From IMG/VR virus record IMGVR_UViG_3300008114_000015: a stretch of DNA of 64,000 bases; one strand, written 5' to 3'. A program made the translations under genes and the position numbers. The notes beneath the pieces were generated by a model. It was not told the origin of the DNA, made no database searches, and saw only the letters and a list, made by a program, of their open reading frames with translations. Position 1 is the first letter of the stretch. Each line of letters opens with the position of its first letter. The DNA is from an uncultured virus (IMG/VR IMGVR_UViG_3300008114_000015) (lineage: Duplodnaviria > Heunggongvirae > Uroviricota > Caudoviricetes). Below are positions 30,456-61,115 of the stretch, in pieces.

Positions 30456-31351
30456 TTAGGCGTCGACTTTAAAAGTAAACTCGCCATGAAATGTTGCAGG
30501 CTTGCCCTTTGAATCGGTAGTTGTACCAGCAATCATCTTTACGCTTTTCTTGGTGGTCCATTTCTGAGCCATAGCTTTAGCGTGACGCTTAGCTGCTGAA
30601 GGGTTTTTCCAAGCAGAATAGTCTGACTGACCAATTACATCTGTAAAAGATGCTTCGTACTGATCACGTTCATCATAACAACGAACGTGGCACAGCCAAC
30701 CGCCACCTTTTTCAAAGTTGTTTGTAAGCGAAACTTTAAAGACTTTAATCTTTTTCTTCGCCATTTGTTTCCTCCATATCTTGTAGGACTACAGGCACAT
30801 GATACACACCAAGGTCTTCCTTAGCAAAGCGCTGAACTAATTCAGCATGACCTTTGTATGCACGTTCAATAGTTTGATAACGCTTTGACTCTACGATTTC
30901 CCCGTCAGCATTCCATACGTATGAAACAAACGGTGATGGCTTAGAGTTTGGTTTCCAGTTCTTAGAACTGAATTGATTCTTTTGCAACCAATCGTATTCC
31001 GGCATATCAACTCCGGTCCACTTGGTTAATACTCGATAATCTTTTACAAACACATCCTTCTTGAATGCATATGGACTACCGAATTCTTCGCTCCATTCCT
31101 TTAAAGTGCAAGGCTGTGAGTTACGATCGTAAAAAGCATAGTCCCATTTAGAACTCATGATCCTCCTCAAAGAAACACTTTAGTGTGCGTGGATCACGGG
31201 GCGTAATCTTGTCGCACTCGTAGCATTGCTCCCAAGGTATTAACTTGTAGTTTTGATCTAAATACTCATCCACAGCTTTTAAGCCGTGCTTTCCATACAT
31301 GTCTTTTACTTGAGACTTAAGCATTTGCATTAAATCTTGTTTCAACGTCAA
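30456..31351 (-). CDS. Three hypothetical genes (30456-30764, 30745-31170, 31148-31351)
   Basis: Overlapping minus-strand ORFs with GGAGG/GAGGAGG-type RBS; exact starts uncertain. Confidence 0.55.
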
Positions 31352-31856
31352 CCAACCTATCTATTATCCATTGAACAACCGGTACTGCTACCGCATTGCC
31401 CATTTGTTTATATCGTTGTGAATCAGACTGTGATGCAGTCCAGTTATCGGGAAACCCTTGTAGGCGCTCACATTCTAACGGAGTTAAACGTCGCACCATT
31501 GCAGGAGTTGCAACCGCATTACCACCAACGGTATCTATTGTGTACATAGGATCAGTAGAATCACCAAATCCTTTGCCTTGTGGTCCAGCAGTATCACTGC
31601 GACCGATGATTGTTCCCTGGATAGGGAATGCCATCATAGGAGTGTTATTACCACCCGTTCCCATCTTTGCCGGCAACGTATTAATCACATCTCCCTGTAC
31701 TCGTACTTCACCAAAGGTACCAGTGTAGAAGATAAGCACCGTTGATCGTGTATCGCCATTGTTATCGAATGCGTTCAATGTAGGAGTAACCTCCGCATCA
31801 ACCCAAGTTTCATAATCTTCCACGTCCTTTGCACGCCTACTCTTTATGAACCACAT
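31317..31856 (-). CDS. C5 cytosine methyltransferase C-terminal polypeptide (TRDs + motifs IX, X)
   Basis: VRRLTPLECERLQGFPD and RYKQMGNAVAVPV; three T-L/I TRD-like units; TAATG coupling to the upstream part. Confidence 0.85.
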   Translation of the reverse strand: MWFIKSRRAKDVEDYETWVDAEVTPTLNAFDNNGDTRSTVLIFYTGTFGEVRVQGDVINTLPAKMGTGGNNTPMMAFPIQGTIIGRSDTAGPQGKGFGDSTDPMYTIDTVGGNAVATPAMVRRLTPLECERLQGFPDNWTASQSDSQRYKQMGNAVAVPVVQWIIDRLVDVETRFNANA

Positions 31857-32334
31857 TAGTCATGTTCTCCAAAGCTGAGTGAAGCAAGGGAGGAAGTTGT
31901 TTTCCCTTTTTGGTTGATCGCCTCAGAATACCCTCGCATGCCTTCGATGAGAGCAAGTACTTCTGCAGGTGCTCGCCCGTTGTCTCCAAGACATCCGACA
32001 ATGAAGATACGACGTCTTCTTTGGGCGACTCCAAAGTATTGAGCGTCAAGAATCCTGTATGCGACCCCATACCCGCGCTCAACCAACGCTTGGATGACGG
32101 TTCCCATATCTCTTCCGTCGTTAGATGACAGAAGACCGGGGACGTTTTCGAGGACGAACCATTTCGCTTTCGTTTCGTCGAGGATGCGACAGATTTCCCA
32201 GAAGAGTCCGCTTCTACCTCCAGCAAGACCTGCTCGCTTACCAGCAACGCTGAGGTCTTGACACGGGAAGCCTCCGACAATAATTCCGTCAGAACCTTCG
32301 AATCCGAGTTCTCTAAGTTGATCGCCTGTGACAT
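31837..32334 (-). CDS. Alternative-frame MTase subunit (M.EcoHK31I beta-like), nested in the MTase gene
   Basis: SSLSDVLE...KYLLSSKACEGILRR..KKGKQLP in a different frame; true start uncertain. Confidence 0.6.
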   Translation of the reverse strand: MSQAINLENSDSKVLTELLSEASRVKTSALLVSEQVLLEVEADSSGKSVASSTKRKRNGSSSKTSPVFCHLTTEEIWEPSSKRWLSAGMGSHTGFLTLNTLESPKEDVVSSLSDVLETTGEHLQKYLLSSKACEGILRRSTKKGKQLPPLLHSALENMTNVVHKE

Positions 32335-32491
32335 CTTTTACATCCTCCAATAATGTTGTGTTAGGAAATTGTTGTTGCAGTACACCACGTGCATGCTTAT
32401 CAATCTCTACAGATGCAACAACAGGTACACCCGCACGTTCTAATGCAAGATCGAAACCTCCGACCCCGGCGAATAACGACACCGCTTTCAT
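31856..32491 (-). CDS. C5 cytosine methyltransferase N-terminal polypeptide (motifs I-VIII)
   Basis: SLFAGVGG, GGFPCQDLS, ENVPG, AQRRRRIF. Confidence 0.92.
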   Translation of the reverse strand: MKAVSLFAGVGGFDLALERAGVPVVASVEIDKHARGVLQQQFPNTTLLEDVKDVTGDQLRELGFEGSDGIIVGGFPCQDLSVAGKRAGLAGGRSGLFWEICRILDETKAKWFVLENVPGLLSSNDGRDMGTVIQALVERGYGVAYRILDAQYFGVAQRRRRIFIVGCLGDNGRAPAEVLALIEGMRGYSEAINQKGKTTSSLASLSFGEHD

Positions 32492-32742
32492 TCTTGTTCC
32501 TTGTCCTCAAGCATGTTCAATGCAGTCTCTGCATCCTTAAGAAACTTAACAATCTCAGTGATATCACTTTCAGATAGTGGGCGTGGTTGCGTGAGCAACG
32601 CCACACGAGCTGCAATGATATTTGCACCAACAAAACCCTTAACAGTTAATGTTGCTTTGTTTCCATCGGGATCAGTAAAGGTGCCGTTCAACAGCGCCTT
32701 TACAATAATTGCATCGCCTACAGATATATCATCAGTGCTCAT
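32488..32742 (-). CDS. Hypothetical protein
   Basis: 84 aa coupled ORF. Confidence 0.55.
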   Translation of the reverse strand: MSTDDISVGDAIIVKALLNGTFTDPDGNKATLTVKGFVGANIIAARVALLTQPRPLSESDITEIVKFLKDAETALNMLEDKEQE

Positions 32743-32846
32743 TCATGCTCCTTCATATGGCGGGCGAGGGTTTGGTGGGCAAAGATGCCCGACCTCACCT
32801 CCAATTCTTTACCGCAGGTAGGACAGACTACTTGTCTGCCCGTCAT
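32739..32846 (-). CDS. 35-aa C2H2-type zinc-finger mini-protein (not in ORF track)
   Basis: MTGRQVVCPTCGKELEVRSGIFAHQTLARHMKEHE; ATGA overlaps at both ends. Confidence 0.65.
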   Translation of the reverse strand: MTGRQVVCPTCGKELEVRSGIFAHQTLARHMKEHE

Positions 32847-33115
32847 TTCAACAACTCCGCGTCTTCATCCATATCGACTAACTTGCGAAGTTCTTGAATC
32901 TTGTCCTCAGCCTCAGACCTAAATGCTCTGTGCCATCCCATATCGTTGGATGCCAAAGTGCCATCTACCCATAGAACGATCGCCTTGTCTACGTGCTCAC
33001 GCTTTCCGCCTAAATCAGTGATGATCTTGAGGATTGCGTGGAACGCTTCGTTTTCCTTAGCCTTGGCTTCGTTGTACTTACCTTGGTGATAATCGAGTTC
33101 CCATTTGAGACTCAT
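32843..33115 (-). CDS. Hypothetical protein, first gene of the MTase operon
   Basis: 90 aa; GAAAGG RBS; downstream of the conserved promoter at ~33153-33190. Confidence 0.65.
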   Translation of the reverse strand: MSLKWELDYHQGKYNEAKAKENEAFHAILKIITDLGGKREHVDKAIVLWVDGTLASNDMGWHRAFRSEAEDKIQELRKLVDMDEDAELLK

Positions 33116-33152
33116 TTGATACCTTTCGTTGAGTTCTTGCCCTTACTTTCTA

Positions 33153-33207
33153 ATCATTACGTATATGCCGTCTTAGGGGTAGTAGGTTTGCTGTGACTTG
33201 ACTCACA
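33153..33207 (-). promoter_or_regulatory. Conserved early promoter + CRP-like box (copy 1)
   Basis: TGTGActtgacTCACA 33192-33207; minus strand CAAACCTAC-TACCCC-17nt-AATGAT. Confidence 0.75.
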
Positions 33208-33532
33208 GAAAAATCGGCCCCAAATAGATTGGCTTATACATGCAGAGAGAGAGGATATAGAGAGGGACTGACATCTCTTTGCCCTGCCAGCCATTGGGTA
33301 GCAATTAGCTTGCAGTGATATCGGATAGTTTCAGCCGATCGAGGCTGTAAAGCTGGCTGCACAGCCGGGGAGGCCATGACCGGTCAATGCAGTAGCCTAA
33401 TCGACTAGTCGATTTGTCGACATTTAATGTCGGCTATCTCTCTTATCTCTCTTTTTGGCTTCTCTCTTCTCTCTCTGCTCTCTCTGCCAATAGCTATCTC
33501 TCTTATTCATGCTCTCTTCTTCGAAGATCGCT

Positions 33533-33548
33533 TGTTTCACGTGAAACT
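33533..33548. promoter_or_regulatory. parS: parS (ParB/Spo0J-binding) site
   Basis: TGTTTCACGTGAAACT: 15/16 to TGTTTCACGTGAAACA, perfect 14-bp core GTTTCACGTGAAAC, intergenic. Confidence 0.8.
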
Positions 33549-33587
33549 AGCTGGAATAGGCGGCCTGGCCGAGCTTCTCTCTCACTG

Positions 33588-33603
33588 TGTGAGCAATATC
33601 ACA
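33588..33603. promoter_or_regulatory. Perfect CRP-like box
   Basis: TGTGAgcaataTCACA. Confidence 0.65.
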
Positions 33604-33630
33604 GCAAAGCTACTTGACTTTTCGGCCGCA

Positions 33631-33672
33631 CCCTATCCCGAAGGGATGAGGGGTGGGAGGGTCAACACAAAC
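33631..33672 (+). repeat. G-run/CAACACAAAC element copy 1
   Basis: CCCT ATCCC GAA GGGAT GA GGGG T GGG A GGG T CAACACAAAC. Confidence 0.85.
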
Positions 33673-33794
33673 ATTTGGCTTTTGGGAGTAGGCATTTCCC
33701 TTTTAAAAAGAAGAAAGCCGCGCTGACCTGAAACAACGCGGCTTCTCCGTGCTCGACCCTAGGTGGAAGGGTAGTACCTAGGGGAGCAACTCTA

Positions 33795-34064
33795 TTATTC
33801 TTGCAGTGATTCTACGAATGGGTGCAAGTGATGCTGATCTACTATCGCCCGTGCCGGCGCTGTAGTGCGGCCCTTATACGTAATTGGATCCGGTAGCTCT
33901 ATCTCCCGGTCGTAGTCTTCATCCAGGTACGCATCGATTGCAGCTTTGCATGGATCGACCATCGTTAACGGTACCGGCGGATAATGATTGCCGGTTAAGT
34001 GATGGGCCAGGCCTTGATCCAGGTGAATTTGGCCGGCTAAGTCTAACGCTGTTGTGTATCCCAT
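33795..34064 (-). CDS. Hypothetical phage early protein
   Basis: 89 aa, HLTGNHYPPVP...C..AI...HHL motif. Confidence 0.7.
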   Translation of the reverse strand: MGYTTALDLAGQIHLDQGLAHHLTGNHYPPVPLTMVDPCKAAIDAYLDEDYDREIELPDPITYKGRTTAPARAIVDQHHLHPFVESLQE

Positions 34065-34072
34065 ATTGATCC

Positions 34073-34774
34073 CTATCTCTTAGTAATGCTGAACGTTATA
34101 TTGTTAGTGCCCTTGACGCAAATCTTGCATGCAATGCAGGCGCCTTCCAGGGGAATTTGCTTGCGTTGCTCGGGACACTTTGCAGATCTCTCGCCTAGCG
34201 CCAGGAGCATATCCTTGGCTTGATCGAAAGTATCGTGTAATCCTGCCAGTAACACGCCTTCACGCTGTAGGCGTTGAGCGCTTTCGAGATTCTCTTTATC
34301 AGTGGAGAAGTATAAAGTGAGATTCTCTAGGTTCCGGAGCATATAAGCTGCAGACTCTACACGTGTGTAGACCCAGAAGCGAACGTCCGGATGGTTCATG
34401 ATCACATGCTTCCATGCGAATGCATAATCTGAGGAGAAGAAGTCCCCGTCCCAGTGAATGCGAAATTCTTTAGGCGCGGACCACTTGTCACATTCCGCCT
34501 TGAATTCCACAATCATCTCATCGAGTAGACTCTCCATCGTGTCATGATCTGCATCTTTAAGCATCTCCCAATTGTGCATAAGGTTAGTACGCACTGTTGG
34601 ATAGATTTTCTCCAGCTTGCCGGCATAACATATGCGAGCGCAAATTGAAGTCTGCGCCGGGCAGCTGTACTCTCTCCCCGCGGGTAAACCGAAAGAATTA
34701 GCAATTCTTGCAGTCTTCCCATTAGGAGTAAGACTATTAGCCACTTTACGATCTTTGGACCGTTTAAGTTTCAT
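34073..34774 (-). CDS. Gp88-like Fe-S/radical-SAM-like phage protein
   Basis: FGLPAG..YSCP...C...CYA, FRIHWDGDFF, FWVYTR, C-terminal CP...C..C..C. Confidence 0.7.
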   Translation of the reverse strand: MKLKRSKDRKVANSLTPNGKTARIANSFGLPAGREYSCPAQTSICARICYAGKLEKIYPTVRTNLMHNWEMLKDADHDTMESLLDEMIVEFKAECDKWSAPKEFRIHWDGDFFSSDYAFAWKHVIMNHPDVRFWVYTRVESAAYMLRNLENLTLYFSTDKENLESAQRLQREGVLLAGLHDTFDQAKDMLLALGERSAKCPEQRKQIPLEGACIACKICVKGTNNITFSITKR

Positions 34775-34796
34775 GAGACCCCTCTCTTCATTGCTT

Positions 34797-34851
34797 AAGG
34801 TATATGACTCTCCCTCTACGTGTAAGTAGGTTTGCAGTGATCTATCTCACA
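34797..34851 (-). promoter_or_regulatory. Conserved early promoter + CRP-like box (copy 2)
   Basis: AGTGAtctatcTCACA 34836-34851; CAAACCTAC-TTACAC-17nt-TACCTT. Confidence 0.75.
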
Positions 34852-34880
34852 CCAGGCCGAGCCCGCAGCTTATATATATT

Positions 34881-34909
34881 CCCTATGGGGTGGGTGGGCC
34901 GACACAAAC
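34881..34909 (+). repeat. G-run/CAACACAAAC element copy 2
   Basis: CCCT AT GGGG T GGG T GGG C CGACACAAAC. Confidence 0.85.
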
Positions 34910-34961
34910 AACGCGAGCCCCGAGCCGCCGCGAAGCTGGCCCGGGGTGCGTTGTCTCTGAG

Positions 34962-35414
34962 TTAGCTCTGTTCCTCCCAATCTGAGCTTTGTAGATTCCA
35001 GTCATCTACATTGACTTCTGATCCCCAAGCGCTCGCATCTATCGTGATCGAGTCGTGGATCAGTGAATCTGAATCGAAGCTGTCGAGCTCTTTCAGCGGC
35101 ACCTCAGCTGTAATGAACACTTCGATCGTAGCTGTGATGCTGATCGTAGCTGTAGGGTTGACGCCCAGAATCTCTTCGAGCTTACTTAGTACTTCATCTT
35201 TATCTGTATTCGAGTGATACCAGCTTTCACTGGTCATCTCCGAAGTGATAGCTCCAATCTTAGCTTGAGCTGTATCCAGCTCCCGGCGATTGAGCTTAGC
35301 TGTCTCGAGCTTCCACTCGAGGTCTGTAGCTTTATGGATGACGAAGCTTTCGGCCCCGTCATTGATATCCCGCAACGTTACTAGCTGATGCGGATTGTAT
35401 GTCTCAGCTGTCAT
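34962..35414 (-). CDS. Acidic hypothetical protein (AGCT-saturated coding sequence)
   Basis: 150 aa Asp/Glu-rich ORF; GGAAGG RBS; ATGA overlap. Confidence 0.7.
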   Translation of the reverse strand: MTAETYNPHQLVTLRDINDGAESFVIHKATDLEWKLETAKLNRRELDTAQAKIGAITSEMTSESWYHSNTDKDEVLSKLEEILGVNPTATISITATIEVFITAEVPLKELDSFDSDSLIHDSITIDASAWGSEVNVDDWNLQSSDWEEQS

Positions 35415-35665
35415 GCATTCACCTTCCTTGCTGACTTGAGCATTGCATTGAGTTCCGCCTTAATTCGACGGGCATTGTCTCCTCTCCATGACTGGAGATT
35501 AGCCAGTGCATAGGAGACTATTGATTCTGCTGAATCCTCGAAGTACCGGTCTTGCATGGTATCGAGTGACATCATGGGAGTGACATATGCTTCTGCATAT
35601 GGATACCAAGACTTACCCCGGCATTCCCAATCTATCTCCAGCGCTATCTCTCTCAGAGTACGCAT
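35411..35665 (-). CDS. Hypothetical phage early protein
   Basis: 84 aa, DSAESIVSYALANLQSWRG..ARRIKAEL. Confidence 0.7.
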   Translation of the reverse strand: MRTLREIALEIDWECRGKSWYPYAEAYVTPMMSLDTMQDRYFEDSAESIVSYALANLQSWRGDNARRIKAELNAMLKSARKVNA

Positions 35666-35708
35666 TCTCTATCCCTTCACTTAGTTACTATCTGTAACCA
35701 GTGACTGA

Positions 35709-35763
35709 ACCATAGGTCCATCTCTCTTTTAGCGTAAGTAGGTCTGTAGTGATTTACATCACA
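35709..35763 (-). promoter_or_regulatory. Conserved early promoter + CRP-like box (copy 3)
   Basis: AGTGAtttacaTCACA 35748-35763; CAGACCTAC-TTACGC-17nt-TATGGT. Confidence 0.75.
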
Positions 35764-35806
35764 TGACTGCAGCTCTCTTCAGCAGCTGAATGAATATATG
35801 AATATT

Positions 35807-35844
35807 CCCTAGTATATAAATGGGGAGGGCGGGCCAACACAAAC
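35807..35844 (+). repeat. G-run/CAACACAAAC element copy 3
   Basis: CCCTA gtatataaa T GGGG A GGG C GGG C CAACACAAAC. Confidence 0.85.
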
Positions 35845-36086
35845 ATTAGGCATTCGGGAAATAAGATTTGGCGCCCTAAAAAAACGATGCCCGGCCGGGG
35901 CAGCGGCCGAGCTCGTTTGGATCCTAGCGGGGCATAGCTTGGATCATCAGCAGCCTTAGCTGCTACATCTGTTGCACTTGCAGTAAGGACCTTGCATTCC
36001 AGAATCCTTCTCTGCTTCGCACTCGCTCATACAGCATGGGCAATAGTTCTCATGCTGTATGTGCGAGCAACATACGTGCAAAGTTC

Positions 36087-36695
36087 TCACGCGTTGGCTT
36101 TCTCTGCCTCTTCACGTTCAGCACGGAGTTTGGCATAGTATGCCTGGTCCGCATCATCCCATTCTTTAGCAGTTTTGAGCGCTTGCGCTAACTCATCAGC
36201 GGGAGCAAGTGGGTCAATATTAATCTGACGTCCTTGCATTGTTGCTGGCTCTAAATCATAGTGCCAGTAAGAATACGGTTGGGAGTTGGTCCAGATAATC
36301 TCAGACTCGGAGCGAAACATGCGACCGTTGTGGATTTCAAACTTCCATAACGCGCCGTCCTCACCTCGCCATTCAATGTATGAACCATCCTTGGTAAAGG
36401 GAGCCATAACCGCCAAAAATAAATCTTCTTGACCAGTTTTGCTATTGTAGTAAGCAAGTTTGAACCCGCCGTCTACTTTTTCAGTCTCGAATCCGAGTTG
36501 ATTGAAGACACTCTCTACAGTCTCCGCGGTTTCGATATCAGTATCATTCATCCAGGAGAACCACTTCTCGCCATTGGATGAGCCACCACGCTTAATAGCA
36601 TGGTATTTAGTTGGCATCTCTCTAATAGTTGCAAGAGATTCAGGAGATTCAGTTATCTCCCACTCTGCATCTACTAGGTCAATGTAATAACCCAT
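36087..36695 (-). CDS. Hypothetical phage early protein
   Basis: 202 aa; GSYIEWRGEDGALW motif; AAGGGG RBS. Confidence 0.7.
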   Translation of the reverse strand: MGYYIDLVDAEWEITESPESLATIREMPTKYHAIKRGGSSNGEKWFSWMNDTDIETAETVESVFNQLGFETEKVDGGFKLAYYNSKTGQEDLFLAVMAPFTKDGSYIEWRGEDGALWKFEIHNGRMFRSESEIIWTNSQPYSYWHYDLEPATMQGRQINIDPLAPADELAQALKTAKEWDDADQAYYAKLRAEREEAEKANA

Positions 36696-36734
36696 AACCC
36701 CTTCTTTCTCTAGTCGCCCTGACTAGGTAGGTGA

Positions 36735-36800
36735 ACCTTCTCATGTATATCTCTTTCGTGGTAGTAGGTTTGTAAAGTTTCTCTTGTGATTTGAATCACA
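36735..36800 (-). promoter_or_regulatory. Conserved early promoter + CRP-like box (copy 4)
   Basis: TGTGAtttgaaTCACA 36785-36800 (11 bp further upstream than in most copies); CAAACCTAC-TACCAC-17nt-GAAGGT. Confidence 0.75.
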
Positions 36801-36817
36801 GCTGAATAACAACAACT

Positions 36818-36848
36818 CCCTTAACGGGGCGGGTGGGCCAACACAAAC
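36818..36848 (+). repeat. G-run/CAACACAAAC element copy 4
   Basis: CCCT TAAC GGGG C GGG T GGG C CAACACAAAC. Confidence 0.85.
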
Positions 36849-36990
36849 TTTCCCCCGCGGCCGGCGGCCTCAGCTGTGGAATAGGTAGGCACGCAGCTAC
36901 ATCTCCCCGAGAAGTGTGGCGGATCATGAATGCGCTTGGCGGGAGCAAGAAAGGAAATAAACCGCTTTGACGCACCTACCTCGAAATCTA

Positions 36991-37221
36991 CTATGGCAAG
37001 GCTAATCCGGAGATGAACCCGCCACCATTACCCTCCTCATCAGCATAGATCTGAATCTGACCTTTCTGCCCATCCTTGAACCGGACAGTAAATGTAGGGA
37101 ATGGATACATTCCAAACTCATCCTCTACCATCCCGTCATAACTAAGAATCGTGGCGCCCACTAAATCGCCATAATACTTAGAGTAAAACTTTTGAGACTC
37201 AGGACTCACAATCGTGTCCAT
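36991..37221 (-). CDS. Hypothetical protein
   Basis: Likely ATG at 37221 with GAGGTGG RBS; DEEGNGGGF motif. Confidence 0.65.
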   Translation of the reverse strand: MDTIVSPESQKFYSKYYGDLVGATILSYDGMVEDEFGMYPFPTFTVRFKDGQKGQIQIYADEEGNGGGFISGLALP

Positions 37222-37300
37222 ATGCCACCTCATTCGCATCATTCTCATCAAGAAGGTTGAACACCCTCTCGCACTCTACACATGTCGCCATTAGCATCAT
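37199..37300 (-). CDS. 33-aa Cys/His mini-protein (not in ORF track)
   Basis: MMLMATCVECERVFNLLDENDANEVAYGHDCES with AAGGGGCAG RBS. Confidence 0.6.
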   Translation of the reverse strand: MMLMATCVECERVFNLLDENDANEVAYGHDCES

Positions 37301-37337
37301 GTCTGCCCCTTCCGTTAGGTATCTCCTAACTAGACCC

Positions 37338-37392
37338 AATCTAATGCCTAGCACTAGTTAGCACAATAGGCTTTGTAGTGATCCACATCACA
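37338..37392 (-). promoter_or_regulatory. Conserved early promoter + CRP-like box (copy 5)
   Basis: AGTGAtccacaTCACA 37377-37392; CAAAGCCTA-TTGTGC-17nt-TAGATT. Confidence 0.75.
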
Positions 37393-37404
37393 CGAGCTCT
37401 CTTT

Positions 37405-37454
37405 CCCTATCCCTTTAGGGATCAGGCTCAGGGTGGGTGGGAGCCAACACAAAC
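37405..37454 (+). repeat. G-run/CAACACAAAC element copy 5
   Basis: CCCT ATCCCT TT AGGGAT caggctc A GGG T GGG T GGG AGC CAACACAAAC. Confidence 0.85.
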
Positions 37455-37524
37455 AAGTGGCTTCGGGTTTGGCGTTCCCTAAAAAACGAGCGCCCCCTTT
37501 CGGGGGCAACTCGCTTGGGGCAAC

Positions 37525-38010
37525 CTACCAACTTGCTTGGTAGATAACTTGCCAATCATCACCTAAGGCGAGCGCCTTATCTATGATGTCAATGGTTTCC
37601 ATCAGGTCGTTGTAATACCACTCATCTTTCTCGGTTGAGCCGAAGAAGAAACCAGCCGTTGGCTGAAGTGGGTCATCACTCACCAGAGTAGTGCCAATCT
37701 TTTGTTGCTCGGCTTTCATGTTCTCCATGATGAACTGAGCAAGGTCTTGACCGCTACCAACAGGTTGCTTGATAACTACATTGTCCTCATTATTCGGAAC
37801 TGCGTTCTCTCGGTTTGCGAGAGCATTATTACAATCCGAACGGAGTTTTAGAAGTTGCTCACGAGATACAAAAATCTCTTGGCACTCATCTAATCCATTA
37901 GCGCACTCACGAACGAACCAACCATGAACAGCGTTAGCCTTGCGCCAATAACCCAACTCTTGATACTCGCTATTTGTAGAGCGAGCGCCTAGATACATGT
38001 CCAACCCCAT
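37525..38010 (-). CDS. Conserved phage protein (YWRKAN.VH.WF type)
   Basis: MGLDMYL...GYWRKANAVHGWF...GFFFGST...YQASW. Confidence 0.75.
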   Translation of the reverse strand: MGLDMYLGARSTNSEYQELGYWRKANAVHGWFVRECANGLDECQEIFVSREQLLKLRSDCNNALANRENAVPNNEDNVVIKQPVGSGQDLAQFIMENMKAEQQKIGTTLVSDDPLQPTAGFFFGSTEKDEWYYNDLMETIDIIDKALALGDDWQVIYQASW

Positions 38011-38387
38011 TAGAGATACCTTCCGATTTCCTTCATGGTGCTTGCTGATACATACTCATCTTCGCTCATGCCTAAGATACGAACAGCATTAGCGATTTCA
38101 TCAACCTCATGGCTACCCAACTCGCTTTCTAAATCGCCAAGTCGTGGTTCATCAGGTATGCGTGTTCCGTTTGGAACTTTGTAAGAAATAGATACTGAGT
38201 TTCGCCATGTGGAATAACTAACATCATCTATTTCTAGTGGTAGTTTGCCAACCGCTTCTGCCCATGATTTTTTATCTTGCTCGTATTTATCACGAACGAT
38301 TTGGTTGCGTGCTGATACCTCTCGGTTTTCTGCTACTCTGCGTTCCAGACCAGCGATTACCAGATTTACAGGCACTTTTACTTTCAT
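38010..38387 (-). CDS. Hypothetical protein
   Basis: 125 aa; AAGGGGCAG RBS; TAATG coupling to the next gene. Confidence 0.7.
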   Translation of the reverse strand: MKVKVPVNLVIAGLERRVAENREVSARNQIVRDKYEQDKKSWAEAVGKLPLEIDDVSYSTWRNSVSISYKVPNGTRIPDEPRLGDLESELGSHEVDEIANAVRILGMSEDEYVSASTMKEIGRYL

Positions 38388-38425
38388 TACTGCCCCTTCC
38401 GTTGATGACCTTCACCAACACTCTT

Positions 38426-38480
38426 AGTTTTGCTTATCTCGTTAGTTAGCGTAAGTAGGTTTGATGTGATGTGCGCCACA
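38426..38480 (-). promoter_or_regulatory. Conserved early promoter + CRP-like box (copy 6)
   Basis: TGTGAtgtgcgCCACA 38465-38480; CAAACCTAC-TTACGC-17nt-AAAACT. Confidence 0.7.
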
Positions 38481-38498
38481 CGAACTCTCTCAACAACT

Positions 38499-38547
38499 CC
38501 CTTACGAAGTAAGTCAGAGACTAGGGTGGGCGGGTCTCAACACAAAC
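38499..38547 (+). repeat. G-run/CAACACAAAC element copy 6
   Basis: CCCT TAC GAA GTA AGTC AGA GACT A GGG T GGG C GGG TCT CAACACAAAC. Confidence 0.85.
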
Positions 38548-38617
38548 ATTTGCGCGAGCTGCGGCCGGCGCGATCCACCGAACCCCCCACCCTTGCGAGT
38601 GGGGGTCGGCGTGAGTT

Positions 38618-39082
38618 CTAGGAAATGACCAGTTCCCTATTCTCCGTAAGGGTTTCGACAACCTTCGGATGAAGTTCCGCACGCATGCTTGCGAAATCCA
38701 TTGGCATACCCGAGGCAAGAACCCGAGAGAGCAACTTAGCGAGAGAGTAATCAGGATTTAGACTCTGCGCTGTGAATAGTGAAGCGTGGGCGAGGTCGTT
38801 ATCCCCTGCTTCAGAGTAGAAGGCGGATAATACGGAGTAGAACGGAACTCGGTCGGCTTCCGCTACGAGTGGCAACAGGTCGGATACGAAACTAATCGCT
38901 CCTTGTGCCGTTAGAACATCAGGTAGTAATCCGAGAATATAATCCCGAACTTGTAGGTCGTTATTTACTGCGAACGCCACAACTTCAGCGAGGTCTGCTG
39001 ATAGTGGTGCGTTATTTACATGCTCCAGCATGAGAGCGTCTATCGCTTCTACTGCTGAGCCGTAAGTGATGACTTTGGTCAT
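38618..39082 (-). CDS. DUF4192-like helical protein
   Basis: NDLQVRDY and NPDYSLAKLL motifs resemble actinobacterial DUF4192. Confidence 0.5.
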   Translation of the reverse strand: MTKVITYGSAVEAIDALMLEHVNNAPLSADLAEVVAFAVNNDLQVRDYILGLLPDVLTAQGAISFVSDLLPLVAEADRVPFYSVLSAFYSEAGDNDLAHASLFTAQSLNPDYSLAKLLSRVLASGMPMDFASMRAELHPKVVETLTENRELVIS

Positions 39083-39130
39083 CTTTGCCCCTTCTTTCTT
39101 ATCGGCTACTTCTGTTTCACCGATAGGAGA

Positions 39131-39185
39131 ACCTTCTCACTTTCTCACAGTTAGCGGAATAGGCTTTGTTGTTATCTACATCACA
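39131..39185 (-). promoter_or_regulatory. Conserved early promoter + CRP-like box (copy 7)
   Basis: TGTTAtctacaTCACA 39170-39185; CAAAGCCTA-TTCCGC-17nt-GAAGGT. Confidence 0.7.
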
Positions 39186-39219
39186 TTCCTGGCCGAACAT
39201 CTGTTCGAGCTTCTCTCCC

Positions 39220-39270
39220 CCCTATTCCCTTTAGGGTTGAGTCAGGGTGGGTGGGCTGACCAACACAAAC
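39220..39270 (+). repeat. G-run/CAACACAAAC element copy 7
   Basis: CCCT ATT CCCT TT AGGG ttgagtc A GGG T GGG T GGG CTGAC CAACACAAAC. Confidence 0.85.
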
Positions 39271-39332
39271 ATTTCGCCGAGCAAGACGAAGCGCCCACCG
39301 ATTGGCAGGCGCTCCGCTGTTGTGGGGCAACT

Positions 39333-39878
39333 CTATTGTTTGAGCATTTCCCTAATGTTGTTCATGACATCTTCATCAGATAGCTGTTCGCCGTCCGTGT
39401 TGATCCATTCCATGATTTGGTCAATCATCTCGCCGTCTGTCATTTCCCCTCCTCGAAGAAGCACTCGGTGATTGTTCCCCAGCAGTATCCATCGCCAACC
39501 CAGTTGATGTGAGTGGCTAGGTAATAGATACCTATGACTAATGATGTCCAGAATAAGACCCGAACAAGTGTTCGAATTCGATAGTAAGTAGGACTACGCA
39601 TCACGAAGTCCGTTTTCCTCAAAGATTGTGGCACTCACGCCGTAATCAAAGAGATTGGTTGCGCCCGCCATGCTTGAGATGTGGGAGATGGTGTTGAGCA
39701 TTGAGGAAGCAAGGTCTTTATCTACACCTAGTCGCACTAGGTCGTTGATTGCCTCGGATACCAGCCACTCGCTGAATGATGTGATGTGATTGCGAAAGAA
39801 CGGGAAGTCCTCGTCGCTGAGGTTTGCGCTTGAGGTGATTAACATCATGCGCTTTGCGTTTTCTGCTGTGATTGCCAT
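39333..39878 (-). CDS. Three small genes: 39594-39878, 39440-39601 (one TM segment), 39333-39443
   Basis: Overlapping ORFs; AAGGGGCAAC RBS before ATG 39878; GAGGAGGGG before ATG 39443. Confidence 0.6.
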
Positions 39879-39920
39879 TTGTTGCCCCTTTACCAACACT
39901 CGGTCGGTGTTGATGGTTGA

Positions 39921-40019
39921 ACTATGGCAGACACGCTGAGTTAGCGGAAGTAGGTTTGTAATAATGTGGCGCATCTCACAAAGCTGACCCCCCCAGGGTT
40001 AAATGTGGCCAAAATCACA
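39921..40019 (-). promoter_or_regulatory. Conserved early promoter (copy 8) + two CRP-like boxes
   Basis: CAAACCTAC-TTCCGC-17nt-CATAGT; TGTGGcgcatcTCACA 39965-39980 and TGTGGccaaaaTCACA 40004-40019. Confidence 0.7.
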
Positions 40020-40487
40020 AAGGGGGGCCAGGTCTCAAATGTAGGTAACACCTCAATTTGTCACACAGTAGCCTAGGGAGTAGAGTCGGCCCCCATGCGA
40101 TACAAGCTTATGGAGTACGACTTCTTTGCGGAAGAGTGGAGTGGTCAATGTGGCGCTTGTGGATTCTGGTTATATGCTCCGAATAAGGAAGCGTACAATG
40201 AGTCCCGCTGGATACATACGCATTCAGATCAATGCCTTGGAGGTTATTAATGAAAGAGCCGTTTATTGTTGAAAGAGATGACATTATTGGTGTTATCTGG
40301 CATCCGGATCTCGGAGAGTTACCTATCCTTGTTGGATCTCGTGATTTCTTCGAATACCTTGAAGAACAAGGCTATGAAGACACTATGGAAGCAGATGAAT
40401 TAATATTTGAGTTGCGTGACTACATCCGCACAGAATGCGAAAAGATTTAGACCAAATTCAGCCCCTTGCTGACTTACCCTATATGCC

Positions 40488-40709
40488 ATGTTCATGGTAT
40501 GGCTTATGGAGCAAGAAGACCGGGATGATGAAGTAGGCGATCTACAAAGACTCATCCATAGGGACTTTAATAACGGCTGTCTGCCTCCTCCTAAAAGCGT
40601 CAAGTCTGTGGTTGAGCATTTCATAAACCACCACCCAGAGCGCTTTATTGAGATACGTCAAAATCTCATAGCAGCTATTAAGGCATACGACGCCCCTTTA
40701 GATAAGTAA
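40488..40709 (+). CDS. YozE-like small helical protein
   Basis: F..WL.EQ.DRDD.VGDL...I..D pattern. Confidence 0.5.
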   Translation: MFMVWLMEQEDRDDEVGDLQRLIHRDFNNGCLPPPKSVKSVVEHFINHHPERFIEIRQNLIAAIKAYDAPLDK

Positions 40710-59534: not shown

Positions 59535-61115
59535 ATGAGTGATATTGAATTTGTAGAAGAAGACGAGATCCTTGTCGAGGAAGAAGAAGACGATCTACCG
59601 CCAGAAGAAGATGACGGTTTAGATGAGTTATCGAGAGCCTTTGTAGACAAGCTTATCGAAAAGACTATGACCTTTATGGAGGCATTAGTCGGACATGACC
59701 TGCACCCATATCAAAAACCTTTGGCTCGAAGAATTATTGAGTCCGTACTTATTAATGATGGCGAAGAAGTAACAGCGCTTGCAGCTCGTCAATCAGGTAA
59801 ATCAGAAACAATTGCAAATACTGTAGTGACATTAATGGTTTTACTACCTCGACTAGCGCGTATGTACCCAGATCTTCTTGGTAAGTTTAAAGATGGAATT
59901 TGGATAGGAATGTTTGCTCCAGTTGAAGGTCAGGTTGAAACTCTATTTGGTAGATCAGTAAATCGTCTTACTAGTGAGCGTGCAATAGAGATTCTTGGTG
60001 ATCCAGAAATTGATGACAGCCTTGGTAAAGTTCCAGGTGTAACACGACAAATACGCTTAAAGAACTCTGGGTCAAGTCTAACCATGATGACTGCAAACCC
60101 TAGGGCAAAGATTGAGTCTAAGTCTTTCCACCTTGTAGTTATTGATGAGTGCCAAGAGGCTGATGACTTTGTGGTTTCAAAATCTATTTCCCCTATGTTG
60201 GCATACTACTCAGGAACAATGGTTAAGACCGGCACCCCTACTACAAGCAAAAATAACTTTTATAAAAGCATACAATTGAACAAGAGACGTCAGACTAGTC
60301 GCGGAGCAAAACAAAACCATTTTGAGTGGGACTGGAAAGAAGTCTCTAAAGTAAACCTTAATTACGGCAAATTCATTAAACGTGAAATGCTTAGGATTGG
60401 CGAAGACTCAGATGAATTTCAAATGTCTTACAACTGTAAGTGGTTGTTGGAGAGAGGCATGTTCGTCACATCCCAAGTCATGGATGAATTGGGAGACACT
60501 TCGCAAGAAGTTGTTAAAGCTTGGCACAGAACGCCTGTGGTGGTGGGAGTTGACCCGGCACGGAAGATGGACTCAACGGTCGTCACGGTGGTATGGGTCG
60601 ACTGGGACAGGCCGGACGAATTCGGATACTTCGACCACAGAGTCTTAAACTGGTTAGAAATCCAAGGAGACGATTGGGAAGACCAGTATTTTCAAATAGT
60701 TAACTTTTTATCTAACTACGATGTACTAGCAGTTGGAGTTGACGCAAATGGTGTCGGAGATGCTGTTGCTCAACGTTTAAAACTACTATTACCAAGAGCA
60801 GAAGTTCATTCAGTTGGCAGTAGCCAGCAAGAACAATCTAAACGTTGGAAACACTTAAAGGCGTTAATTGATAGGCGAATGGTTGGTTGGCCAGCCCACG
60901 CTAAGACAAGACGTCTTAGATCTTGGAAGCGTTTTTACCAACAAATGACGGACTTAGAGACAAAGTTTCAAGGTCCTAACTTTTTGGCACATGCCCCAGA
61001 AGAAGCCCATGCCCATGATGATTATGCAGATAGCCTAGCCATTGCCTGTGCCTTAACTATGGATTTAACCATGCCCCAAGTAGAAATGTCCTCATCCCCA
61101 TTTTATGGCAGATAG
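59535..61115 (+). CDS. terL: Terminase large subunit
   Basis: LHPYQ, ARQSGKS, VIDECQ, GVDPAR, DANGVGD, HDDYADSLA. Confidence 0.92.
   Translation: MSDIEFVEEDEILVEEEEDDLPPEEDDGLDELSRAFVDKLIEKTMTFMEALVGHDLHPYQKPLARRIIESVLINDGEEVTALAARQSGKSETIANTVVTLMVLLPRLARMYPDLLGKFKDGIWIGMFAPVEGQVETLFGRSVNRLTSERAIEILGDPEIDDSLGKVPGVTRQIRLKNSGSSLTMMTANPRAKIESKSFHLVVIDECQEADDFVVSKSISPMLAYYSGTMVKTGTPTTSKNNFYKSIQLNKRRQTSRGAKQNHFEWDWKEVSKVNLNYGKFIKREMLRIGEDSDEFQMSYNCKWLLERGMFVTSQVMDELGDTSQEVVKAWHRTPVVVGVDPARKMDSTVVTVVWVDWDRPDEFGYFDHRVLNWLEIQGDDWEDQYFQIVNFLSNYDVLAVGVDANGVGDAVAQRLKLLLPRAEVHSVGSSQQEQSKRWKHLKALIDRRMVGWPAHAKTRRLRSWKRFYQQMTDLETKFQGPNFLAHAPEEAHAHDDYADSLAIACALTMDLTMPQVEMSSSPFYGR

Follow-up and report, generated by a model that had tools for sequence, protein, structure and literature searches.

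The stretch of DNA considered here, called the window in this paper, consists of 64,000 nucleotides from an uncultured virus of the Caudoviricetes (IMG/VR record IMGVR_UViG_3300008114_000015), and the subject of this work is one gene on its minus strand (34962..35414), called the AGCT gene below. The DNA of this open reading frame (ORF) is selected for the tetranucleotide AGCT across codon borders, over the protein code, and this points to an undescribed signal overlaid on the protein code in the gene. The word saturates the gene independently of the encoded protein and of codon usage, is kept with turnover in a related lineage, stops sharply at the limits of the gene and is avoided genome-wide, and the gene itself stands at a boundary of palindrome density. 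AGCT is the site of AluI, an enzyme of actinobacterial origin, and of M.AluI, a 5-methylcytosine (m5C) methyltransferase. A literature search gave no account of a gene filled in this way with a restriction-type word, subscription journals being mostly outside its coverage.

The window contains 196 AGCT in its 64000 bases (3.1 per kb), a rate which predicts 1.39 sites for the gene, and 20 are seen, starting at positions 34964, 34985, 35078, 35086, 35106, 35130, 35148, 35179, 35222, 35250, 35262, 35268, 35278, 35293, 35298, 35308, 35328, 35345, 35383 and 35406. In the complete genome of a near-identical phage (G001, 96,030 bp), which shares 96% of the sampled words with the window, the second-densest 450-bp stretch has 6 AGCT. 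Four null models were used for comparison. Permutation of synonymous codons within the gene gave a mean of 9.87 AGCT (standard deviation (sd) 2.07, maximum 18) and shuffling of the codon order a mean of 4.35, and 20 or more were reached in 0 of 20000 trials of either kind; codons redrawn from the usage of the window gave 3.6 (sd 1.7; 0/3000), and codons redrawn from the GC-richer local minus-strand block gave 3.69 (0/5000). Synonymous recoding can place at most 23 AGCT in the gene, so that 87% of this capacity is filled, and the other ORFs together use 160 of their 1687 attainable AGCT (9.5%), with a maximum of 33% for a single ORF of at least 80 amino acids (aa). Furthermore, a blind scan of 106 ORFs for 16 palindromes (1688 tests) ranked AGCT in this gene first (P 2e-17) and TCGA in the same gene second (8 of 16 attainable sites, P 5e-6). 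The excess of AGCT claimed in an earlier note on this DNA is real, both against the window rate and against the 3.6-3.7 sites expected from protein and codon usage, and it does not vanish in the codon-preserving shuffle which that note had proposed as a check.

Every codon phase is represented among the sites (5, 6 and 9 in phases 0, 1 and 2, respectively), and the choice of codon depends on the neighbouring residue: Lys and Gln take the G-ending codon before Leu (AAG and CAG) and the A-ending one before Ala (AAA and CAA), and in the Thr-Ala pairs ACA is used for Thr in 7 of 7. Because all three phases are used and codon choice is neighbour-dependent, the selected unit is the junction-spanning word and not the codon. 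Almost every GCT of the gene (20 of 22) lies within AGCT, as does AGC (likewise 20 of 22). The flanking bases are variable, so the consensus is the exact 4-bp palindrome, with no extended or asymmetric form; by eye, palindromic flanks were seen at about 4 of the 20 AGCT, the number expected by chance, and no inverted repeats were found in 34700-35750. There is also no periodicity among the 20 sites, the best power being 4.55 against a random mean of 5.08, and the 10-11 bp band was matched by 43% of random sets. Two contig variant positions fall within the gene (35144 and 35226) and neither touches an AGCT, a number too small for use.

The earlier note had further spoken of frequent TCGA and GATC in the gene. 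This holds against the codon usage of the phage, since 1.66 of the 8 TCGA are expected from window usage (0/3000) and 3.0 from the local block (6/5000), and 0.98-1.5 of the 5 GATC (2/3000 with window usage, 36/5000 with the local block). It does not hold under within-gene permutation, which reached the TCGA count in 1553 and the GATC count in 2070 of 20000 trials, neither being significant. Since the enrichment of these two words disappears when the codon usage of the gene itself is preserved, they are treated as secondary.

The array begins at codons 2-3 and finishes in the stop codon. The overlapping upstream gene was said in the same note to have no AGCT, and indeed it uses none of 11 attainable sites. 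The same is true of the metagenome contig L010, in which the upstream gene is without AGCT and the array is confined to the ORF.

The evolution of the array can be followed in three metagenome contigs (L009-L011), where a homologue of 66% identity stands in an unchanged gene order, that is, the upstream 84-aa gene, the AGCT gene, an intergenic cassette and GP88. Silent divergence between the two lineages is near saturation (proportion of silent differences, pS, 0.60 in the AGCT gene, 0.78 in the upstream gene and 0.64 in GP88), and these homologues contain 15-16 AGCT; L011 fills 16 of 22 attainable sites, which 0 of 5000 permutations reach. Counted on the codon alignment, 10 sites are shared, 10 are found only in the window and 6 only in L011, and several of the turned-over sites involve an amino-acid change, e.g., QSS (CAA AGC TCA) versus QSA (CAA TCA GCT). 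Because AGCT is kept with turnover, selection in one sub-clade acts on how many sites there are, at silent as well as replacement positions. The capacity for AGCT is itself high, 23 here versus 13.3 +/- 4.7 per 150 aa in other ORFs; it is 11-14 in the relatives of about 50% identity and 8-13 in three distant homologues compared at the DNA level. These three (L006, L012 and L013), which are 32-37% identical, have zero AGCT. The second code over the ORF that the earlier note had inferred thus outlasts all controls for amino acids and codon usage and is maintained, with turnover, at 66% identity, and the AGCT density in homologues, which that note had named as a check, is high at that identity but not at 32-37%. 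A search for another palindrome in place of AGCT in L006, L012, L013 and 18 representative loci gave no saturation approaching that of AGCT. The idea of an overlapping antisense gene was also rejected: the antisense ORFs measure 68 and 56 aa in the window and 111 and 73 aa in L009-L011, and the two sets are dissimilar.

The whole phage is depleted in AGCT: 196 occur in the window versus 298 +/- 14.5 in dinucleotide shuffles, and in G001 the observed/expected ratio (O/E) is 0.69, with a z of -9.4 that is the strongest among the sixteen 4-bp palindromes. The minus-strand block of small genes at 30.4-40.6 kb, to which the AGCT gene belongs, has a GC content of 0.475-0.487 versus 0.41-0.45 in the rest of the phage. 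In the nine genes upstream of the AGCT gene (block A), the attainable sites that are used, with the fraction in plus-strand genes in brackets, number 0 of 106 for AGCT (10%; P 2e-5), 0 of 80 for GGCC (3%), 2 of 74 for GATC (17.5%), 2 of 58 for GTAC (15%), 2 of 52 for ACGT (14%) and 3 of 74 for AATT (22%). CATG, GCGC, CCGG and TCGA are unpurged in block A, the genes downstream of the AGCT gene show no purging, and the other genes flanking the AGCT gene in the same block hold 0-3 AGCT each.

When all sixteen 4-bp palindromes, an a priori set, were counted in 3-kb stretches, the poorest 3 kb of G001 (about 36984-39983 of the window) had 70 versus a mean of 145 (sd 24). The minimum and the maximum of the genome are adjacent, and the AGCT gene lies inside the maximum, which remains the maximum when AGCT is left out (167 versus 82, sd 17). 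The poorest 3 kb of G002, a complete phage of 107.5 kb whose homologue of the AGCT gene is 34% identical, ends immediately upstream of that homologue. Moreover, the family gene was located in 31 viral loci with the help of a second alignment, and of the 18 representatives chosen among them 17 have both flanks; in 17 of 17 such loci, which belong to a G002-like clade, the 3 kb upstream have 35.5 palindromes per kb and the 3 kb downstream 56.9 (Wilcoxon 0.0003) at equal GC, and the step in density is located at the family gene. DUF932 is found upstream in 16 of the 18 representative loci (44 of 72 neighbour ORFs scanned); a connection of this domain with anti-restriction is not used here, as the papers listed on the subject do not contain its name. 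The GP88 relative of G002, which lies upstream of the family gene, is poor in palindromes (31 versus 45.7 expected). The main features are collected in the following table.

Table. Positions of the AGCT gene and of the features around it in the window
Feature	Coordinates	Strand	Remarks
AGCT gene	34962..35414	-	453-bp ORF, 150 codons; attainable sites used: AGCT 20/23, TCGA 8/16, GATC 5/12
Upstream gene	35411..35665	-	84 aa, phrog_13953; 4-base overlap with the start of the AGCT gene; AGCT 0/11; no GATC or GGCC
Block A	35411..40624	-	Nine upstream genes, 3255 coding bases; several 4-bp palindromes purged; holds the lowest 3-kb count of the genome
Palindrome-richest 3 kb of the genome	33242..36241		Includes the AGCT gene; 255 palindromes versus mean 145 (sd 24)
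Downstream intergenic cassette	34775..34961	-	GC-rich hairpin, repeated core (plus strand 34887-34910), second repeated word; 2 AGCT
Upstream intergenic cassette	35666..36086	-	Core 35822-35845, terminator-like hairpin 35912-35889; 5 AGCT
GP88-family gene (PF17338)	34073..34774	-	Downstream of the AGCT gene; palindromes 60 versus 38.7 expected
C-5 cytosine DNA methyltransferase	31317..32491	-	Two ORFs (32491-31856 and 31856-31317) sharing one base

The 453-bp ORF is the gene of a conserved, very acidic and presumably early phage protein. The acidity stated in the earlier note is borne out by a calculated isoelectric point of 4.21, with 30 Asp plus Glu against 10 Lys plus Arg and a net charge of about -20 in 150 aa. 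The gene is a real one: the first homology search gave 25 relatives at E<=0.001, an alignment of 24 family sequences has a mean column identity of 68% with 35 invariant columns, a profile search expanded the family to 131 clusters at 50% identity, and the ratio of nonsynonymous to synonymous rates (dN/dS) is 0.21 versus the 66%-identical homologue. The product has no match in the Pfam, PHROG, NCBIfam or PADLOC families. Its predicted structure (pLDDT 80, pTM 0.46) matched nothing in the PDB at E<=0.001, the best Foldseek E value being 0.68 and the best VIA Z 4.6, and its structure matches in BFVD and the ESM Atlas are all uncharacterised phage proteins. Many distant members have an additional N-terminal CxxC...CxxC ribbon, for which the Pfam hits are sub-threshold (3 of 44 scanned). 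The long forms of the family (P0152, P0153, P0160, P0173, P0197, P0201 and P0227; about 200-225 aa) have this zinc-ribbon-like start, joined to the rest by a conserved 'TNER..ME' linker, and the ORF of G002 has kept the linker without the ribbon. A variant from one contig (P0002, a single member) is otherwise identical to the product of the AGCT gene and lacks 23 residues (EVFITAEVPLKELDSFDSDSLIH). A restriction-mediated deletion was ruled out in this case, as the ends share a 3-base CGA microhomology and not AGCT or GATC.

The two intergenic cassettes of the table belong to a repeated set. A 24-base core occurs in four copies (0 expected) on the plus strand, at 33650-33673, 34887-34910, 35822-35845 and 36826-36849; each core adjoins a GC-rich terminator-like hairpin and has a second repeated word, ATCACTRCARACCTACTTAC, on its transcriptionally downstream side. 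The cassette in L010 is conserved better than silent codon positions, and the upstream cassette probably bounds a two-gene operon (35665->34962). The cassettes resemble the promoter-terminator 'PeSL' cassettes of T4-type phages, as these are described in the available text of PMC2839356 and PMC4122927. In a freshwater metatranscriptome (X17), contigs lie over the genes and not over the cassettes, a weak sign of transcription in view of a possible carry-over of DNA. Further downstream, a 680-bp non-coding region (33116-33794), in which long CT tracts face a GA tract and short inverted repeats occur, contains the strongest AGAG/GAGA cluster of the genome and is possibly a regulatory or origin-like region. 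No tRNA genes or known RNA families were detected in the window.

Some other word clusters were seen in the neighbourhood and elsewhere. The eight minus-strand genes downstream (30456-34774) use GATC at 31% of attainable sites versus 17.5% in plus-strand genes, TGCA at 33% versus 16% and CCGG at 22.5% versus 8.6%, which is the opposite of the purged upstream genes. An acidic 89-aa gene two genes downstream (33795-34064, minus strand) fills 6 of 8 attainable CCGG and 4 of 10 GGCC; 0.77 CCGG are expected from window usage (0/10000), and within-gene permutation reached the count in 138 of 10000 trials. This is another gene rich in palindromes, though less markedly so than the AGCT gene, and GC-rich codon usage (CCG for Pro, GGC for Gly) may be the explanation. 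The strongest GGAC, GACC, AGGA and CAGG clusters of G001 lie at about 69967-70540 (25 GGAC in 450 bp), in what looks like a collagen-type Gly-X-Y repeat gene.

As an explanation of the array, we tentatively favour a positively selected double-strand array of AluI-type sites, tied to host restriction-modification and placed at the edge of exposed early DNA, although the chance that it is right is put at clearly below even. A double-strand reading is suggested because AGCT is palindromic, as are 16 of the 256 tetramers, and is placed in all three codon phases; the link to restriction is suggested because the word is depleted genome-wide and absent from nine upstream genes that shun other palindromes as well. 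The reader of AGCT would then be a symmetric, site-specific protein of the restriction-modification type acting on double-stranded DNA. The upstream genes would be DNA that is open to host restriction before protection is established, comparable to the first-step-transfer DNA of T5; the acidic protein would belong to that protection as a candidate anti-restriction protein; and the AGCT array, placed where the unprotected DNA starts, would act in cis as a sink or landing pad for a host enzyme specific for AGCT. Both an ordered entry or exposure of the DNA and an effect of the array on the enzyme are presumed steps of this scheme.

A number of observations weigh against this reading. Comparable saturation occurs in 0 of 18 representative distant homologues, the best case being TCGA in G002, with 8 of 25 attainable sites versus 3.4 expected under an amino-acid-aware null (30/2000), which is the densest TCGA cluster of that genome. 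The non-coding cassettes inside block A retain AGCT, GGCC and GATC at 11-33 per kb, and these retained sites are not what pure restriction avoidance predicts. Because their synteny is shared, the 17 loci with a palindrome step amount to about one clade, in addition to that of the window. A sink would have to be bound without being cut, or its sites would have to be protected, because a cut breaks the genome. In addition, there are 284 other AGCT in the genome, so that 20 extra ones are a small share of the targets, and the array stops exactly at the limits of the ORF, which suits an RNA-level or gene-specific role better. The terminal repeats (114 and 127 bp) resemble assembly overlaps and are uninformative on virion ends and on the order of entry. 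Finally, the acidic protein has no match in sequence or fold to any anti-restriction protein, and no AGCT-specific endonuclease or methyltransferase was identified in the phage.

A related reading with restriction at its centre takes all of the roughly 33 sites (20 AGCT, 8 TCGA and 5 GATC) as a decoy which lies over an acidic anti-restriction gene and heads the unprotected part of the genome; it is regarded as doubtful. The hosts would be very small freshwater actinobacteria with perhaps only tens of restriction-enzyme molecules per cell, and the array would tie up the enzyme, or draw it beside the nascent inhibitor, as the remaining DNA follows. If this were true, it would be counter-defence through the sites themselves and not through site loss.

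The remaining explanations dispense with a host restriction enzyme as reader. The sites could form a binding array for some other DNA-binding protein, as an injection-stop, packaging, partition or replication element in which many weak AGCT half-sites would build one strong nucleoprotein complex and avoidance elsewhere would prevent titration; this is rather unlikely in our estimate, yet it accounts for the cluster and the genome-wide depletion together, and the array does sit in the palindrome-richest 3 kb, beside the 680-bp non-coding region with its CT/GA tracts and the hairpin cassettes. Models for such an element are found, as far as the available parts of the sources go, in the injection stop signal of T5, a cis region of repeats and palindromes that ends site-poor first-step DNA (10.1101/866236), and in P1 oriL, which shows that cis sites can be embedded in a coding sequence, being located within repL (PMC9948254). 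However, four bases are very short for specific binding, the sites follow no spacing rule or helical phasing, a T5-like cluster of DnaA boxes is absent (5 matches in the window versus 6.8 expected, one within 400 bp), the replication and terminase genes are 20-30 kb distant, and no candidate binding protein was found. It is likewise unlikely that the gene is a methylation island, in which AGCT would be the target of the split m5C enzyme of the phage or of a host cytosine methyltransferase and would carry an epigenetic mark. In its favour, the m5C methyltransferase of G001 lies 2.5 kb from the gene, M.AluI is an enzyme of this kind, and G002 (L022-L027) has neither a C-5 methyltransferase gene nor an AGCT array in its homologue; N4-methylcytosine at AGCT is also described in a lake Thaumarchaeota bin, according to the accessible portion of PMC6329791. 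The contrast between G001 and G002 is one genome against one, though, and AGCT is still depleted in G001. In the phage enzyme the break falls after motif VIII and before the target-recognition part, its fused relatives have 399-470 aa and 62-65% identity, and neither names nor structures gave a target, 120 listed full-length relatives being generically named and the PDB matches covering the conserved C-terminal motifs only; the target-recognition part matched no characterised enzyme. In G002, CCGG occurs 0 times versus 133 expected and CGCG once versus 86 expected, and the O/E values of CCGG and GCGC in G001 are 1.09 and 0.97. As CCGG and GCGC are at expectation in the methyltransferase-bearing G001 and CCGG is absent from G002, the enzyme would protect CCGG or GCGC rather than AGCT, and it is, from this comparison of two genomes, unlikely to be the AGCT reader. 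Moreover, no reader of such a mark is known.

A signal in RNA, by which AGCU would make the cistron a preferred substrate or sponge of a sequence-specific endoribonuclease and so time or limit its expression, is considered improbable, even though the length of the array equals that of the ORF, the co-transcribed upstream cistron has 0 of 11 sites in two lineages, and AGCT is missing from the neighbouring early coding regions and kept in the non-coding cassettes. The mRNA also folds somewhat better than shuffles (z -2.78), and the X17 contigs over genes and not cassettes are a further, weak indication in view of possible DNA carry-over. Sequence-specific mRNA cleavage is represented by T4 RegB, which acts on GGAG, and by toxin RNases; to our knowledge, no RNase has AGCU specificity. 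An RNA word needs no palindromy, for which the prior is 1 in 16, and the purging of at least six palindromes at once from the neighbours is the signature of enzymes acting on double-stranded DNA. The footprint of site-creating repair in a donor genome, which the earlier note had listed, belongs to a wider class in which AGCT is functionless and derives from mutation, i.e., biased mismatch repair, methyl-cytosine-driven change or inheritance from a donor; this origin is very improbable. The minus-strand block does differ in codon usage and GC, and its early genes stand between repeated cassettes that could move modules. On the other hand, filling of 87% of the attainable maximum is far beyond any genome-wide bias, few or no AGCT occur in the neighbouring genes of this block, and the trait persists with turnover over near-saturated silent divergence in two lineages. 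In 9 of 20 sites silent choices are needed at both outer letters, and the outer A and T, on whose silent choice most sites depend, are beyond the reach of T:G mismatch repair. Least credible of all is a by-product of amino-acid composition and codon preference, which the null models refute for AGCT (0/20000, 0/20000, 0/3000 and 0/5000); the many Thr-Ala, Lys-Leu, Glu-Leu and Ser-Phe pairs explain the high capacity of the gene, and composition may suffice for TCGA and GATC.

Several known systems can be compared with the AGCT gene. In P1 pac, a cluster of seven Dam sites (GATC) lies inside pacA and cleavage is controlled by methylation, and oriC is likewise under the control of GATC clusters. 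P1 pac has in common with the array a dense cluster of a 4-bp palindrome of the methylation or restriction type over a coding sequence, where it acts in cis. It has seven sites, however, as against 20 at 87% of the coding maximum here, and AGCT is avoided elsewhere in this phage; the position also differs, the AGCT gene being without a terminase family and the large terminase lying at 59535-61115 on the other strand. The origin of phage lambda is embedded in gene O. This origin and P1 oriL (available text of PMC9948254) resemble the present case in that a DNA-level code lies in one ORF, whereby sites and gene stay linked in a mosaic genome. They differ in that their sites are iterons of 15-20 bp or AT-rich regions, to which the basic product of the gene binds, whereas here a 4-bp word lies in the gene of a protein too acidic for DNA binding. 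Ocr and ArdA are DNA-mimic anti-restriction proteins which are small and strongly acidic and act on Type I enzymes, and the folds of such mimics are diverse. The product of the AGCT gene is similarly a small, strongly acidic protein among what are presumably early genes (compare the available part of PMC9366191), but it shares no family and no fold with them, as judged from the Foldseek and VIA values above, and its relatives often have a Cys4 ribbon. The lack of a fold match does not exclude a mimic role, because mimics have diverse folds.

T5 offers the nearest parallel for the surroundings of the gene. According to the available text of 10.1101/866236, restriction sites beyond the first-step DNA of T5 are tolerated, the injection stop signal is non-coding and built around eight DnaA boxes, and the terminal repeats have 10 kb. 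The likeness consists in an early site-poor block (70 versus 145 +/- 24), which may be the first to enter, followed by a palindrome-rich region; the differences are that the array here is coding, that DnaA boxes are no more frequent than expected and that the long inverted repeats of a T5-type stop region have no counterpart in 34700-35750. No relatives of T5 A1, A2 or dmp turned up among the Pfam and PHROG matches, including those of the block A genes. More generally, phages avoid short palindromic restriction sites, most of all in early-injected DNA, as stated in the available portions of PMC4687349 and PMC12455610. The rest of the present phage, above all the nine upstream genes, agrees with this in shunning AGCT and other 4-bp palindromes, but the AGCT gene pushes the avoided word near its coding maximum.

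The stretch is present in 20 runs from 12 studies among the matches listed, mostly lake and freshwater metagenomes, and 16 of the 20 listed runs contain at least half of its sampled words. Its recurrence in these runs shows that it is no artefact of assembly. A search of a phage collection with 5 kb around the AGCT gene gave no match, nor did a scan of genome contigs for further homologue DNA.

It is common knowledge that phage genomes lose restriction sites. The AGCT gene indicates that selection can also favour restriction sites locally, since an avoided site has been held at the coding maximum through long divergence. Should the array act as a sink, a stop signal or an epigenetic mark where the restriction-exposed early DNA ends, it would be a new kind of cis element in the conflict between phage and host, and also a clean case of two codes in one sequence. 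Furthermore, the family-wide step in palindrome density could be used, from sequence alone, to mark where the exposed early region of uncultured phages ends.

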